Assembly (NCBI GenBank): GCA_046483495.1
Contig: JAWODC010000001.1
Location: 1-64,000, forward strand
Direction: 5' to 3'
DNA from: Desulfobacterales bacterium
GTDB taxonomy: Bacteria; Desulfobacterota; Desulfobacteria; Desulfobacterales; UBA5616
Length of the DNA: 64,000 bases
Position numbers: made by a program. Positions 12,001 through 30,000 of this stretch are shown in pieces (positions within the stretch are counted from its first letter, which is position 1; the number at the start of each line of letters is the position of its first letter).

Positions 12001-15000
12001 CGCAGATGCTGAAAATCCTTCAAAATATCGCAGGCCAAAATCCTCGGAGACTTCTCGCATATACGTATGTGCCGTATGATCAAAAAAATTCAGTGATGTC
12101 GATATGGATGTTGCATATTTCCCCTTTAGTAGATCCTTCGGCGCATGCATCTGAATCAGCTCGATAAATCGCATAAGTTGAGAGGGGACAACCATGACAT
12201 AAACCGGAAACGACCATATGAGGACATCTGCTTTTTTCAACTCGTCGATGGCAGCGTCCATTTTGGCTGAATCCTTTTCCAATGCTTTGATCGATGCGCC
12301 GACTGGAAGTTCAGCATACTCATATGCACCAAATTTGTTTTGAACCACCTGTACCAGCTGTAAAGTTGTGCTCTTTTTCCCCTTCGGGCTTCCATTGATA
12401 ATTGCAATTTTCATTTATTATCTCCATCTTAAATGTTGGCAACCCTCTCTGAATATTCTTCTCGCAGTTTTCTCTTTAGAATTTTTCCCGACGAAGTCAT
12501 GGGCATCTCTTTTCTGAATATGACACGTTTTGGAGATTTGTAGTCCGCTAGCCGCTCTCTACAGAAGCGGACTAGTTCCTCTTCTGTAAGGTCGATGCCA
12601 TGCCTTGGCACTACAACGGCTGTGACGATTTCACCCCACTTTTCATGCGGGAGGCCGATGACGGCGGTTTGGGATACTTTGGGGTTCATATAGATGGCGT
12701 TCTCGATTTCAGCCGGATATATATTGAGCCCGCCGCTGATAATCATATCTTTAACCCGGTCTATAATGAAATAATAACCGTCTTCATCGATGGATGCGAG
12801 GTCACCGGTATAAAGCCAGCCATCTCTGATGGTTTCCGCGGTCGCTTCCGGCATTCCCCAATACTCCCTGAAAACTACCGAACCCTTGATCAATATTTCA
12901 CCAATCTCGCCTCCCGGACTGATTGGGTTGCCGTCACTGTTTACCACCTTAATAAGATTCCACATCATCGGAATATACCCCCCCTTTTTATGATTCGCCA
13001 TTTTAAAGGGTAGATACATGTTAAAACCTCCGCCCTCTGTAAGTCCGTAACCCGCGGAGAAGGTAACCCCCTTTTCCTGATAGGCCTTTAATATGCTATC
13101 CGGAACAGGGGCACCCCCGGAAAAAGCAAAACGCAGGGAACTCAAATCCGCATCGGCGAATTCAGGCAAATCCGAGACGACTTTCCAGATGGTGGGCACC
13201 GCAGCGCACCACGTAATGTTTTCTTTTTGAATGAGCTCAAGCGTTCTCTGTGGTATAAATGTTTTTTCCAAAACAATGGAGCCCCCGGAATAAAACATCG
13301 GCATCGATAACGTGACCAGGCCACCTGTAAAGCAAAGGGGGGCCTGGATTAGAACTTTACTTTCCGATCCGTGTGAATACGCAGTAACTGCATTTTGGCA
13401 TATGGTCTTAATATTTTCCTGGGTTAGAACCGCGCCTTTGGGGTAACCCGTTGTCCCCGAAGTATATAAGATTGCAAAATCATCGGACCAGCACGCCTGA
13501 TCCTCCGGTTCCCTATTAGAGGCCATATCCATGAGCCTTTTGAAGCTGCTTTCCTCAAGATTGATGAACGCCCGCTTGCGCACAAGGTCCTTTACGGTGT
13601 CCAATACGGCCAGAAAACTATTTTCACTTATAAGTAATTTCGGTTCACAATTTTTCAGGACATAACCGATTTCGTTTCCAGAGAGTCGTATGTTTATTGG
13701 TACAAATCGCGCACCGGTTTTCGCACATGCAAATACAAATTCGTAATATTCTATCGCGTTGTTCAGCAGGCAGCAAACGCGGTCCCCTTTCTTGACATGG
13801 AAATGCTCCTTAAGCAAACCGGCGACTTTGTTGATGTTATCATTCAATTCACCATAGCTGATGCATTTGCCGTGAAATACGACCGCTTTCCTTTCATATT
13901 CAACCCGGCTCCACCATGCAATCCAGTGTCCCATATTGCCAATTTCCATATCCTGGTCCTTTCACTATATTCTCAGAAATTGTTTTTCTAAAACACTCTG
14001 AATTATAGAGGGAGTTCAATCTTTTCAAAGGAGGCTTCTTCAAAATAACGCGGCTCATCCCTTCATTCACCCCGAAACCGCCTTTTTTGCTTATAAATGC
14101 TTGGCACTTTTACGGCACCGTTTTCAAATCTGGCGCCTTCTTTATCTCTCCTGCAGCACATGATGGGTAGAGAACGTCTATGGCAGATTTGCGCGCTTCG
14201 TTAATTATCATTTCAAAGGTCATTCTGCTGAAATCTTTATATATTTCTATTTTTGGCAAATTCTTCTACATAAAATTGTTCGAACAGCACGAAATCCTGG
14301 TCCGGTCTATCAGCAATTTTTTGGGCCATTTTTCTCTTTCTCTCTATTGCACGTATATTATAATAAGGGTCTTTCAATTGACTTTCATTATGATTCAGAA
14401 GTATTTCTCCTTAAAAAAAGATTTTCCATACGTAAAGAAGGGGTCTGTAATAGAGCTGTTCGTTTTAGACTATCCGGATCAAAATCGATTTGTCGGTATC
14501 TGATCTTTGAATCGGGTTTGGCACTGGTGAATTTTCCGTTATTTCTAATCACAAGGCCATCTTTGATCAAACACCAGCAGTTGGAGAGCGCCTCGACTGT
14601 TTGAGCGGCAGACATATTCGGTTTAAGATCATACACGGCGATATTGGCTGCCGCACCCACTTTTAAATGTCCAAGATCATCAAGACCGAGTTGAGAAGCA
14701 GGTCCCAGGCGCGTAAAACGCGCAATATCGAATAAATCAAATTCTCGGCCATCGAGGACGTTATCGATCGATTCCGGACGCTGAGCTTTATTTATCAGCC
14801 ATGATACAACAAGGGGGATCCGGTCCATATATCCCATAGGGGGTGAAATCGAAGAGAGAGAAATCCCGCCTGAATTACCGCACCTATTCATCGTAATCCA
14901 TCCGATTTGCGATAAATCGCTCATAATTTCAATTTTACGCATTCTGTACTGCAGTGGGTAAGCGTTTTGAATGCCCGCATCGATTGAAAATGTACCGGGC

Positions 15001-27000: not shown

Positions 27001-30000
27001 GGTTTTGCCCACTCCGGGCGGGCCCTCGATCAAAACGTGGTGACCGGAAAGAACCGAAGCAAGAATTCCCTTTTTCGTTACGATTTGTCCCATAATGTTG
27101 TTTAGAGGATCGTCTCCCCTTTCCAAGAAACTTTCTATCGTCTCTTTCAATCCCTCTACGACCATATTTTTTTCCTTTTTCTGTTTTTCCCCGAATTATC
27201 ACTCTCGAGCCATTACATACTGCATTCGAATATCCTGCCACTGTCTTGAGGAGGCCGAAAAATAGCGCACCAATCCGTGAACCTGCGGATAAACGGTAAA
27301 CGGATATATCCGGTTTGGATCCGAATTATCAACACCGTAAACACCAATCCGATGTGATGCCAATTTATCCATATTGGCCATTACCCATGACTCCTGAACG
27401 GACAAAGGTATACCGAACGGTTCCTGAAAGGCTGCAACCACCAATCCATAATCATGCGTGTGTTTGTGCTCTTTGCGAAACTCGATAAGCTTCCTTGCCT
27501 TTTCCGATGCTTTTTCATTGCAGCATGGTGTAATCATAAGAAAGAACCGGCGCTTTTTGATAAAACCAAATAGATCGGTTCCGGGATAATCGCCAATTTC
27601 ATACCCGTTATCCAGGAGCAGCTCGGAAAAGGCGGTTCTTATATATGTCACTGCATCATTTTCATCGTCAAAATCAAACCTGTTGCGAACCGGAAGAATA
27701 TGGCTCGTCTTCGTCGGATTCACCCATGGATCTAAAATCTTGGGCCTCTCGCGTTCGATCTCACCTGCCAGATAACATATATCCTTGACTATTGTGTTTT
27801 CATGAATGAGCTCAACCGACAGCAGAACCTTCACCTCTTTTGAGGCATCTTTTTTTTCCAGTATTCGAATATCCTTGACCCGCCAATCTTCTGGATAAGG
27901 GAGTACGATCGACATTTTCCGATCAGAAAAAGCTTTATTCACATCACGAACCGTGGTCATTTATTCACAGATCCTGTTATGTTTTTCAGTTTTCTATTTG
28001 CTGTCAAAAGCACCTGCCACATCCAATGATCTGATACCATAAGGTTAATTTTCATCGGGAAGCACAGATTCAATGCTTTTTTGATCATTCATATGAAGAA
28101 TTTTCATAAACTGATCCACCATTTCATTAATACTAAACTTTCCGTCCTTTTGGTACCAGGTCAGAGACCAGTTGCAAATCCCATAAATGACCATGGCAAA
28201 AACCCTGATATTGATCCCTGAAATAGCTTCAGGATGCTCTTGACGAATTTGTACAAGTATTTTTTCTATAAGTTTCAGATAGTTTCGTTCCGTTTGCTTC
28301 ATAAGAGCCTTGTTTTCATCGACAAGATATTTACTCTCGCTGAAAAACACCTTAAGGGCGTCTCTCTTTTCCGGCAACTGCCCCAAATAGGAATAAAACA
28401 GGTATCCTAATTTTTGTATTCCATCATAGGAATCGTTCTCAACTATTCGTTCCAGTTCATTGATAAAACCCGGAGTCAATTCGGCAAGCATTGTCCGAAG
28501 AATGTCATCCTTATTTTTAAAGTAATAAAACAGCGTACTGCTTTGAATGCCCACCTCTTCTGAAATCATTCGAATCGAAGTGCCATGATACCCCTTCTCA
28601 ACCATCAGCTTCGCTGTTGAATCGAGAATATTCTTATAGGTATTGTTGTGGTTGATGTCTCCGGACTGTTTCATTTTTTCCATTTCAGACTTTTATAAGT
28701 TATTTTACCGATCGTTCGCTAGATATAATTCCATTTAAAATACCACTTGTGTTGTTGTCAAGATTTATTTTTACTTGATGGCGGGTTTTAATTTTGGAAG
28801 GGAAGAGAGTTTACGAACCGGACTTTTTCAAAAATCGGATGACCTCGTAAGCCTCCTGAACTGCATTGAATATATTACCAGGGTCCCTTGCATCCCCGAT
28901 GATACATATTTCCGGCACGGCATCATGAAGCTCGGTTGTCAATCGATTCACGGATACTGCACCGGCAGCCACGACAATATGATTGAACGGACCTATCTTT
29001 TTCACCCCATCAACAGAACGAATGGTCACATCATCGGTGCCAATTTCCATAATTTTTGTCGATGTTAATATATGTACATTTTTTTCATTCAACCGATTTA
29101 ATAGAAAATGGCGTTGTGGCGGCATCATGCCACGAGCGACTTTCCCAAGAACCTCGACAATCGTGACGTGCTTCTCCTGATCGGCAAAATATTCAGCTAT
29201 TTCACATCCGACCGCACCGCCTCCTATAATCAGGATATCATTGCCCGCAAGTTCACCGGCGAGTGCTTCTGCTGCTGTTAAAGGATTTGCCCGGTCAATA
29301 CCGGGAATTTCAGGCATACAGCCGGTGGACCCTGTGGCAATTACCAAAACATCCGGTTTAATATTGTTGACAGCGCTTGCATCAAGCTCTTTACCGAGCC
29401 TTATGTCGACGTTCAGCCGTTCGAGTTCCTTGACCCTGGAGGAAACCACATTCTTCAAAAGATCTTTTTTCGGCAAAACAGCAGCTGCGTTAATTTGCCC
29501 CCCGAGTTTGGTTTCTTTTTCGCAAAGAATAACATGATGCCCCAAGACGGCGGCTGTTCTTGCCGCTTCTAAACCTGCCGGCCCCCCGCCTGCAATCAGT
29601 ATTCTGCGTACAACCGACGGAGACAGGGATTCGTGTTCTCGCTCTCTGCCCAAAACCGGATTCTGGACACATTTAATTGGATTTCCACGCCAGGCAAGGG
29701 ACAGGCATTCGAGACAAGAGAGGCACTTTACAATTTGGTCGGTGCGATTTTGAGCCGTTTTGATCCCCCACAACGGATCGGCAAGGGATTGCCGCCCGAC
29801 GGCTACAAGGTCCGCCTTGCCGGACGCTATGACTTCTTCCGCCAAAAATGGATCATGTATGCGGCCTACCGCGATAACCGGTACGGATACGGCGGATTTC
29901 ACGGCAGAGGCGCCTTTGATATTGTATCCCTGATCCATATCGGCGGGAGCCATGGTTAAAAAAGACGTCTCATATACGCCCATGGAGACATGGATCGCAT

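Follow-up and report, generated by a model that had tools for sequence, protein, structure and literature searches.

Introduction

To our knowledge, the A-cluster of acetyl-CoA synthase (ACS) is known for one reaction only. In the ACS of C. autoethanogenum with bound acetyl-CoA, Trp405 stacks on the adenine and the acetyl group lies between Arg383 and His386, the latter touching the acetyl methyl and being positioned for deprotonation of CoA. Among Ni-CODH sequences, Inoue et al. (2019) described structural group A-4 by the signature D,P,C,C,C,C; Q,R and group A-6 by N,S,C,C,C,C; H,L, and found both in bacteria only (PMC6344411); the text of that study makes no mention of VWA, AAA or Fwd, and its 2022 follow-up filtered out B-cluster mutants. 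A preprint by Zimmer et al. (2026) places, between CdhC and AcsB, a clade of ACS proteins that carry a structured N-terminal extension (PMC13370988, section 11), in a few sentences of phylogeny; lost ligands, acyl pocket, selenocysteine (Sec), missing corrinoid genes and function go unmentioned in its sections on this clade.

Here we analysed a window, the whole stretch of 64,000 nucleotides at positions 1 to 64,000 of contig JAWODC010000001.1 (GCA_046483495.1) from a Desulfobacterales bacterium, which carries a block of genes resembling these systems. The genes are real, but the block is no CODH/ACS. We favour, with a probability of roughly 40%, the reading that it represents a third lineage of acetyl-CoA-synthase-like Ni enzymes, which would act as a (de)carbonylase that needs no corrinoid and works on a non-acetyl acyl-CoA.

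Results

The conserved block comprises 11 genes (14388..27960) with intergenic gaps of -11 to 150 nt:

27199..27960, minus strand: 253-aa protein, the block's first gene, with weak similarity to the PD-(D/E)XK fold; predicted to be a non-catalytic accessory protein
26128..27165, minus strand: ChlI/MoxR-like AAA+ ATPase, 345 aa, with an AAA_3/Mg_chelatase match; predicted assembly chaperone
25305..26138, minus strand: CooC/AcsF-like P-loop ATPase of the CbiA family, syntenic; predicted A-cluster Ni insertase
23078..25276, minus strand: ChlD-like protein with AAA-like and VWA parts, 732 aa; predicted partner of the AAA+ ATPase
20279..23005, minus strand: CdhA-like alpha subunit, 908 aa, with a CdhA family match below the TIGR00314 cut-off
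19812..20276, minus strand: CdhB-like epsilon subunit, 154 aa, syntenic, with a TIGR00315 match (E 7e-5) below cut-off
18369..19742, minus strand: ACS beta subunit (CdhC), 457 aa, with a CdhC family match above cut-offs
17779..18327, minus strand: PD-(D/E)XK-like-fold protein, 182 aa, conserved beside cdhC or cdhB in bacteria and archaea
17300..17761, minus strand: ferredoxin, 153 aa, with a CdhE-type N-terminal Fe-S domain and a FwdG-like 2x[4Fe-4S] part
15821..17149, minus strand: FwdB-like protein; predicted electron relay or scaffold
14388..15824, minus strand: FwdA-like amidohydrolase fold; predicted non-catalytic in the window

Every ORF named in an initial annotation of this DNA was found in its place on the minus strand, with the family matches described. 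That annotation had overlooked two conserved genes (17779..18327 and 27199..27960), and its 148-aa "Fe-S fragment" proved to be a complete protein of 153 aa with three clusters, conserved across 11 aligned loci. Relatives are also closer than the 36-37% identity it gave, at 62-66% for CdhA and 79-82% for CdhC, the latter being the best-conserved large subunit of the block. The AAA+ ATPase is 61-72% identical among module loci and the AAA-VWA protein, syntenic in relatives, 42-61%, while the CooC-like protein has 37-38% identity to the other CooC of the same genome. The 253-aa protein yielded zero matches in Pfam and NCBIfam; it is syntenic, with 54-60% identity in close relatives and 35-42% in a more distant family of relatives (f55). 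The lineage was present in 21 of the 401 Desulfobacterota and 18 of the 301 Halobacteriota searched, and, as had been noted, the module is rare within its own order (3/301 genomes).

In the window's beta subunit the A-cluster ligands are complete (C222, C225, C234, C244 and C311-G-C313, the last encoded as TGT GGG TGT) and satisfy the pattern CxxC-x8-C-x9-C plus C-G-C, which bears out the earlier description of intact cysteines. With C. autoethanogenum numbering transferred via 6YTT, Arg383 and Trp405 are also kept (R116 and W138), and F119 stands in place of the acetyl-contacting His386. The same holds throughout a clade of 27 beta rows, which split from canonical CdhC and AcsB with an SH-aLRT of 100 in a quick tree: Arg383 and Trp405 were found in 27/27 and all A-cluster ligands were kept, whereas His386 was found in 0/27 (replaced by F, Y, A, M, G, V or C) compared to 29/29 canonical sequences. 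Loss of His386 also takes away the proposed CoA base and could signal another nucleophile or other chemistry instead of a longer acyl chain.

Relatives of the window, though not the window itself, encode the distal-Ni Cys pair as TGA-GGN-TGA. One downstream hairpin was common to 10/10 of these rows, and selA was found in 5/5 cases tested. The motif is likely to be read as Sec-Gly-Sec, and the relevant passages of two selenoproteome reviews do not name such a family; the TGA pair, the common hairpin and selA together indicate selection on the A-cluster.

In the alpha subunit the C-cluster has lost the His (Asp350) and Cys1 (Gly377) and kept the remaining four Cys (417, 608, 637 and 673); both His columns of the acid-base relay are replaced (A, S). 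Lys723 is kept, yet only 12/72 members of the alpha clade have it. The E cluster (C504/507/510/514) and F cluster (C539/542/545/549) are retained, and the B- and D-cluster ligands are gone, the segment being deleted in the window's subgroup. A Cys-rich domain that is a separate gene elsewhere is fused to the N-terminus (aa 1-74). The description as an archaeal-type CdhA stood as far as the family match goes and had missed the loss of catalytic and B/D-cluster ligands. The clade, 73 rows in all, contains groups A-4 and A-6, as placed by rows with their exact residue signatures; with the diagnostic columns masked, the same set of rows grouped in one clade (support 1.0). Across it, His and Cys1 were found in 0/72, Cys2-5 in 72/72 and D ligands in 0/72, and the B cluster was lost in 23/72 including the window. 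These residues lead us to predict that the alpha subunit is incapable of CO/CO2 interconversion.

The alcove of alpha is altered as well. In the window Phe is replaced by Gly690 and Leu by Phe591, with the Arg that contacts beta kept (Arg587); in the clade Phe601 is Gly or Ala in 69/72 (Phe in 23/25 canonical sequences), Leu504 is F, I or Y in 71/72, and Arg500 is kept in 65/72. The change amounts to a swap, with Phe removed at one site and Phe or Ile introduced at another, and not to a simple widening.

Loss of catalytic residues in 3 of the 4 enzyme-derived subunits could suggest a decaying, non-functional remnant of an ACDS. We consider this very improbable and largely refuted by conservation: the reading frames are unbroken, the order of all genes is maintained, the same substitutions recur in bacteria and archaea, Cys2-5 are invariant (72/72), and relatives show likely Sec recoding.

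As the initial annotation had stated, neither cdhD nor cdhE lies inside the block. The fetched flanks of clade-beta loci contained them in 0/30 cases (18 of these loci had at least 3.5 kb on both sides) compared to 12/12 canonical loci. A complete bacterial acsDABCE operon, likewise reported before, lies on contig C45 of the same genome, and in 19/21 bacterial carriers another part of the genome encodes a corrinoid subunit of full or nearly full length, so supply in trans is possible. The block could then be a second ACS that relies on the ordinary corrinoid protein, receives CO either externally or from the ordinary CODH, and makes or splits acetyl-CoA or, via an alkyl-corrinoid, a longer acyl-CoA. 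The complete A-cluster ligands and Phe491, kept in 22/27 clade betas, would fit this, and Inoue et al. took the A-4/A-6 clusters as possibly belonging to the Wood-Ljungdahl pathway (PMC6344411). We nevertheless regard it as unlikely, though far from negligible, given the uniform loss of His386 and the absence of adjacent cdhDE, and a canonical AcsB already stands beside the corrinoid genes in each bacterial carrier assembled at that locus. Plain redundancy would also leave unexplained the 2-4 alpha paralogues in each f55 genome, several of which lie in separate catabolic islands beside acyl-CoA dehydrogenases, B12 mutases, CoA transferases, thiolases and TetR genes.

In the window and two relatives the neighbours are DUF1302/1329, AOR, SDR, SnoaL and ligase genes. 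The alpha and beta genes of ANME-1-type archaea are often found apart from each other, amid housekeeping genes and with no accessory or Fwd-like genes nearby, which counts against the (de)carbonylase reading.

The Fwd-like genes had been thought not to be conserved with the module; they travel with the block in relatives, with cofactor ligands stripped. The FwdB-like protein keeps its N-terminal [4Fe-4S] Cys and has lost the W/Mo ligand and the following His, the Cys/Sec and His being missing in 9/9 aligned sequences and the Cys retained in a more distant relative (L122). It has no Pfam match, as reported, although TIGR03129 matches positions 3-421 below cut-off. In the FwdA-like protein the dimetal site H,H,K,H,H,D reads N69, H71, F170, W211, C231 and I326, with 5/6 positions replaced, and the window's Fwd-like pair is accordingly predicted, from its residues, to be non-catalytic.

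These genes raise the possibility of a formyl-handling complex, in which FwdA/B would channel formate or formyl and the A-cluster would turn formyl-CoA or formyl-X into CO, or use formyl as a carbonyl source replacing the lost CODH. Their co-occurrence with the block and a full FwdA metal site in 4/4 f55 genomes are consistent with this. We judge it quite improbable, since FwdA has lost its metal site in 5/5 sequences of the window group, where beta is still about 80% identical, FwdC, Ftr and Mch gave no match over cut-off in the 5 carriers tested (this genome included), and a formyl substrate has no need of a varied hydrophobic pocket.

An acyl-CoA/aldehyde oxidoreductase, interconverting acyl-Ni and aldehyde with electrons passing via ferredoxin, FwdB and the alpha E/F clusters and without CO, would explain just as well why CO chemistry and a corrinoid partner are missing, why the CoA residues are retained and why the pocket has changed; many Fe-S sites are kept and AOR genes are close by. 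It is an unlikely reading in our estimate: the B cluster, a part of the relay, is lost in nearly a third of the alpha clade, the C site lies about 35 Å from the A-cluster, and the fetched archaeal loci lack both the ferredoxin and the Fwd-like genes.

Discussion

The Ni and CoA residues are intact, catalytic residues are gone from the CODH partner, no methyl-carrier gene is adjacent and the methyl-contacting residue is replaced; the enzyme therefore likely forms or cleaves a different, larger acyl-CoA. This agrees with the core of the earlier proposal of a corrinoid-independent, non-acetyl (de)carbonylase outside the Wood-Ljungdahl pathway. Its term "CO-handling" was too broad and needs narrowing, because alpha is predicted to be unable to interconvert CO and CO2 and the window's Fwd-like pair to be non-catalytic.

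In the (de)carbonylase that we favour, alpha and epsilon would have dropped the CO dehydrogenase role and instead form a lid with a gas channel above the proximal Ni. The larger acyl-CoA would bind in a widened A2-A3 cleft to give an acyl-Ni, the CO extruded from it would pass to the ordinary CODH of the cell for oxidation, and R would depart without a corrinoid, for example as a thioether or, after beta-H elimination, as an alkene; run backwards, the reaction would be a carbonylation. Ni model chemistry exists for such an exit, and we found no enzymatic precedent. The FwdG-like ferredoxin and the cofactor-less FwdB/FwdA may provide reductive activation or scaffolding, and the metal sites may be assembled by CooC and the AAA+/VWA pair. 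In this genome the reaction would run in the catabolic direction, and the surrounding island would act on a hydrophobic substrate that is probably cyclic or isoprenoid.

More doubtful is a wider proposal, that of a widespread class of Ni enzymes for C-C/C-S chemistry, namely corrinoid-free A-cluster (de)carbonylases interconverting larger acyl-CoA with CO plus alkene or thioether (Reppe-type), in which the dead CODH would act as an exchangeable lid for the substrate and many members would carry two Sec on the distal Ni. In Desulfobacterota such enzymes might take part in degrading hydrophobic organics anaerobically; in ANME-1-type and three-mcrA alkane-oxidising archaea they might supply an acyl-CoA step that has gone unrecognised. 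A lineage with the intact Ni and CoA residues, changed acyl pocket and missing CODH catalysis and corrinoid partner seen here would extend biological organonickel chemistry to other carbon chains. The exact residues and a purifiable complex are named here, making the reading checkable. It would also follow that annotations of Desulfobacterota, ANME-1-type archaea and other MAGs wrongly count such genes towards a Wood-Ljungdahl capacity to fix CO2 or oxidise CO, and the relatives contribute a likely selenoprotein family.

Among known systems, formylmethanofuran dehydrogenase FwdABG (5T5I) and the cofactor-less FhcB of Fhc are close to the block, which shares the FwdA, FwdB and FwdG-like folds but lacks the W/Mo ligand, FwdC/FwdD and, in the window, the FwdA metal site, and the genome lacks Ftr and Mch. 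With archaeal ACDS CdhABCDE (M. thermophila 9C0Q/9C0S, M. barkeri 3CF4, Ca. Ethanoperedens 8RIU) it has in common the alpha fold with E/F clusters, epsilon, the two-domain beta, the A-cluster ligands, CooC and the alcove Arg. It differs in lacking the C-cluster His and Cys1, the relay His, the B/D ligands, beta His386 and cdhDE, in Gly at Phe601, and in the additional AAA+/VWA, two PD-(D/E)XK-like and three Fwd-like genes. Relative to Ni-CODH group A-1, the window alpha has the E/F Cys and four of the five C-cluster Cys, and lacks the C-cluster His and Cys1, the acid-base His and the B/D Cys. It resembles A-4/A-6 (PMC6344411) in the loss of His and Cys1, the retention of Cys2-5, the absence of a D cluster and its clustering with ACS subunits; unlike them it reads D, G-N, A/S, keeps the Lys and has no B cluster, and by these residues it is a new subgroup. 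The clade of Zimmer et al. (PMC13370988), as far as its description goes, is like the block lineage in having no prismane domain, in occurring in bacteria and archaea and in its early-branching CdhA partner, and on that description the two are probably the same.

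A conserved block of 11 genes

The module consists of 11 minus-strand ORFs running from 27960 to 14388 with intergenic gaps of -11 to 150 nt, in the order 253-aa protein, AAA+ ATPase, CooC, AAA-VWA protein, CdhA-like alpha subunit (908 aa), CdhB-like protein, CdhC (beta subunit, 457 aa), 182-aa protein, 153-aa ferredoxin, FwdB-like protein, and FwdA-like protein. The initial annotation named the genes on its list correctly and missed the 253-aa and 182-aa proteins, which are both PD-(D/E)XK-like and show no mutual BLAST similarity.

14388-27960, minus strand, block of 11 genes
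18369-19742, minus strand, beta subunit (CdhC/ACS)
20279-23005, minus strand, CdhA-like alpha subunit
28811-64000, island genes within the window
36903-37013, plus strand, 80-nt segment with 82.5% identity to fwdB of the block

The full 11-gene order is repeated in 3 other sampled genomes (G297, G045, and G241), and the same order holds, as far as the contigs extend, in G134, G211, G150, and G269 and in the fetched loci L119 and L120. A contig search with the single alpha protein yielded one locus only, and profile searches were required to find the relatives. An ordinary acsD-cooS-acsB-acsC-acsE operon is present separately in the same genome, on contig C45. The GC content of the block region (0.41-0.51) is below that of most contigs of the genome and the module's beta was absent from the single same-genus genome searched, so that the region fits an island. 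The fwdB piece at 36903-37013, which has an enoyl-CoA hydratase gene on one side and a KstD-like gene on the other, looks like the remnant of an earlier copy or of a rearrangement.

Neither the promoter and terminator scan nor the search for inverted repeats produced a decisive result. In three metatranscriptome runs, scattered contigs of low depth matched at ≥99% identity, over intergenic DNA too; they may stem from DNA carry-over and speak neither for nor against expression.

Metal ligands of the alpha subunit

Compared to the solved CdhA structures, the alpha subunit has the B/D-cluster segment deleted, has lost the relay His, and carries Asp350 in place of the C-cluster His and Gly377 in place of Cys1, while Cys417, Cys608, Cys637, and Cys673, along with clusters E and F, are kept. 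The C-cluster His and Cys1 are missing from 72 of the 101 aligned alpha sequences, and in these Cys2-5 are invariant (72/72), the D ligands are missing throughout (72/72), and the B ligands are missing in 23; every C ligand is present in the canonical rows (25/25). Because the 72 had initially been defined by two ligand columns, the tree was rebuilt with the ligand columns masked. In this FastTree phylogeny the 72 and one gapped row formed a single clade of 73 with support of 1.0 and no canonical row inside, and three other odd alpha rows were placed outside it. That four Cys are invariant points to a plain cubane at the former C site, and we predict that the protein is no CO dehydrogenase, with the ligand losses as a trait of the lineage.

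In most relatives the Cys-rich N-terminal domain of the window's alpha (aa 1-74) has its own gene of 73-78 aa, immediately upstream of cdhA; in locus L001 it stands free, about 1.3 kb downstream. A single in-frame TAG was seen inside the clade-alpha match of each of two archaeal loci, L207 (G570:C35) and L215 (G608:C7).

The beta subunit and its acyl site

All A-cluster ligands are present in the window's beta, and no other large subunit is as well conserved (79-82% identity to close relatives, compared to 62-66% for alpha). In a quick tree with midpoint rooting, the 27 clade betas separated from 12 archaeal-type and 17 bacterial canonical betas with an SH-aLRT of 100, and the window's group was sister to the archaeal members (support 98). 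Decay of the module is hardly credible.

In the acetyl-CoA complex of ACS (Clostridium autoethanogenum numbering), Trp405 stacks the adenine and the acetyl group lies between Arg383 and His386, with His386 touching the acetyl methyl and positioned for CoA deprotonation (Yin et al., bioRxiv 10.1101/2024.08.05.606187). Numbering transferred via 6YTT equates Arg383, His386, and Trp405 with R116, F119, and W138 of the window. The Arg and Trp are retained in all 27 clade betas, whereas the His386 position holds His in none of them (F, Y, A, M, G, V, or C instead) and in 29/29 canonical sequences. Other canonical invariants of the same helix (Asn and a second His) are also gone, and its variability within the clade exceeds the protein mean.

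CdhA forms an alcove above the proximal Ni from Leu504, Val507, Phe601, and Arg500 (Biester et al., PMC11474084). Among the clade alphas, Arg500 is retained in 65/72, Leu504 is replaced by F, I, or Y in 71/72, and Phe601 by Gly or Ala in 69/72, compared to Phe in 23/25 canonical rows. The alcove residues thus read as a swap, not a plain widening. Retention of the Arg amid replaced neighbours suggests that the docking of alpha on beta has probably been preserved while the shape of the cavity has changed.

ACS middle-domain-only proteins without A-cluster ligands, paired with CooC, were observed at L003:8541-10168 (G000:C56:23546-25017), in this bacterium, and at L298:7865-9159 (G633:C86), in an archaeon; both adjoin 2-hydroxyacyl-CoA dehydratase-type subunits and activators.

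Likely selenocysteine codons in related beta subunits

The distal-Ni C-G-C motif is encoded as TGA-GGN-TGA in 8 of 13 genomes of family f55, two genomes from the order of the window, and three metagenome contigs, and these fall into two separate subclades. All 10 TGA rows examined share a hairpin of 20 nt, located some 20 nt downstream, with synonymous sites identical except for one C/T. It is complete in 0/24 Cys rows (some of which are cuts of the same loci), and the Cys-coding row L101 retains its outer stem. Folding energy over the 57 nt that follow the TGA pair was not unusual (z -1.6 to +0.1), and the case for the hairpin is made on nucleotide identity at synonymous sites. With selA found in 5/5 carriers tested, these codons likely specify a selenocysteine pair. 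The window's beta reads TGT-GGG-TGT, though tRNA-Sec is present in its genome. A term search of two selenoproteome reviews (PMC13188914, PMC9312934) returned HgcA as the only ACS-related entry, and no report of a Sec-containing ACS was found in the literature searched.

Corrinoid, ferredoxin, and Fwd-like genes

The corrinoid-subunit genes acsC and acsD were absent from the fetched flanks of all 30 clade-beta loci, which include non-independent kin and of which 18 had 3.5 kb or more to each side; they adjoin beta in 12/12 canonical loci. A strong corrinoid-subunit match lies elsewhere in the genome in 19 of 21 bacterial carriers, the remaining two genomes being 85% and 78% complete. We regard it as unlikely that the module borrows its corrinoid in trans. 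One in-frame stop was seen inside the acsD match of each of L258 and L272, both archaeal-type Cdh operons of Desulfobacterota.

What the initial annotation called an Fe-S fragment turned out to be a complete three-cluster protein that joins a CdhE-type N-terminal domain to a FwdG-like part and is conserved in 11 loci. In the canonical complex, the CdhE-like Fe-S domain lies 32 Å from the A-cluster and passes no electrons to it. An acyl-CoA/aldehyde redox reaction is one alternative; loss of the B cluster in 23/72 alphas, together with the absence of ferredoxin genes at the archaeal loci fetched, tilts the balance to redox-neutral chemistry, and we consider the redox alternative unlikely.

In f55 the ferredoxin-fwdB-fwdA genes stand before a cdhA-cdhB pair. 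The FwdB-like proteins keep the [4Fe-4S] Cys, and the W/Mo ligand and the His are missing in 9/9 aligned; the more distant FwdB-like protein of L122 retains the W/Mo-ligand Cys. All six metal residues of FwdA are kept in 4/4 f55 rows, and at least four are lost in 5/5 rows of the window's group. Searches for Ftr, Mch, and FwdC came back empty in 5/5 carriers tested. Formyl chemistry, for which Fwd-like genes might speak, is improbable against these losses, and we infer that the genes serve as a relay or scaffold. At L048:3573-4889 (G134), the FwdB-like [4Fe-4S] motif has an in-frame TGA at its third Cys, which may mean Sec, an error, or a pseudogene, and L126:7649-11026 carries fwdB-fwdD-ferredoxin-AAA+, with a FwdD-like gene still beside the module's ferredoxin.

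Distribution and genomic context

With two candidates scored per genome, clade alpha was found in 21 of 401 Desulfobacterota sampled (the window's genome, 6 of family f54, 13 of f55, and 1 of f34). Within the order of the window, 3 of 301 genomes carry clade beta. Among the relatives that bear names are Deltaproteobacteria, Freyarchaeota, and Tectomicrobia. Clade alpha was found in 18 of 301 Halobacteriota, 11 of which carry mcrA. In nine of these the mcrA is of a low-scoring type, taken as ANME-1-like on its score band rather than on a tree, and two have three divergent copies. By hand count, with three candidates scored per genome, it was found in 0/135 Halobacteriota with an ordinary-scoring mcrA. 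Clade beta was present in 5/5 ANME-1-type genomes tested, where alpha and beta are often unlinked.

As a general role, the missing alkyl-CoM to acyl-CoA step of all alkane-oxidising archaea was rejected, since neither clade alpha nor beta was found in G433, G540, and G633 (two four-mcrA genomes and one two-mcrA genome); it is possible for three-mcrA genomes only. The six-mcrA genome G668 has a UGU-type beta only, on a 1.4-kb contig (L288, G668:C213:1-1379) that is possibly a misbinned bacterial one. Ca. Alkanophaga volatiphilum has four cdhA/cdhC pairs, two without adjoining cdhD/cdhE tags, and one of these reached ~608 FPK on pentane compared to 616-634 and 1334-1673 for complete operons (Zehnle et al., PMC10322722). 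Going by table rows, not sequences, this pair is a candidate member of the clade.

The f55 genomes have 2-4 alpha paralogues, several of which adjoin acyl-CoA dehydrogenases, B12 mutases, CoA transferases, thiolases, and BcrBC-like and HdrA-like genes. The window's island (28811-64000 with loci L004/L005) encodes six or more OYE-type reductases, two KstD-like proteins, several CrtI-like flavoproteins, two AOR, two DmsA-like proteins, acyl-CoA ligases, enoyl-CoA hydratases, molybdoenzymes, a B12 mutase, and DUF1302/1329 proteins, and the module's neighbours in G045 and G297 resemble these. NCBIfam gave no substrate-specific match over cut-off on the island, with the KstD-like, BaiCD-like, and CrtI-like matches all below. 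Directly upstream of the module at L320:1234-5053 (G812) are genes for a glycyl-radical enzyme and its activase, with CoA transferases downstream.

Discussion

Together, these results argue that the block is a real, conserved variant of the CODH/ACS kind, and its sequence argues against the ordinary reaction; some non-canonical chemistry, distinct from a plain Wood-Ljungdahl ACS, is probable. Arguing on the mechanism from the ligands found, the residues swapped, the gene content, and the synteny, we tentatively favour (de)carbonylation of a larger acyl-CoA (probability about 0.4), close to the corrinoid-independent (de)carbonylase of the initial annotation. Beta would form an acyl-Ni from the larger acyl-CoA with alpha acting as a lid, CO would exit via alpha's channel to an ordinary CODH, and the R group would leave without a corrinoid. 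Explanations other than this one and the alternatives weighed with the results are, taken together, very improbable.

The lineage was not mentioned in the passages found of Chadwick 2022 or of the Hadarchaea paper, and in the open literature searched nothing was found on its function, pocket change, or Sec. Further literature on the topic includes PMC12289521, PMC9751293, and PMC8776680. The A-4 and A-6 CODH groups have incomplete active sites, are described from bacteria only, and were suggested to be involved in the Wood-Ljungdahl pathway (Inoue et al. 2019, PMC6344411), and a preprint on genomic context from 2026 (10.1101/2025.09.14.676152) treats clade A as an active Wood-Ljungdahl CODH. 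An early-branching CdhA accompanies an ACS clade that has been mentioned as lying between CdhC and AcsB (Zimmer et al. 2026, PMC13370988). The subunits of this lineage are so far known only as branches of trees.
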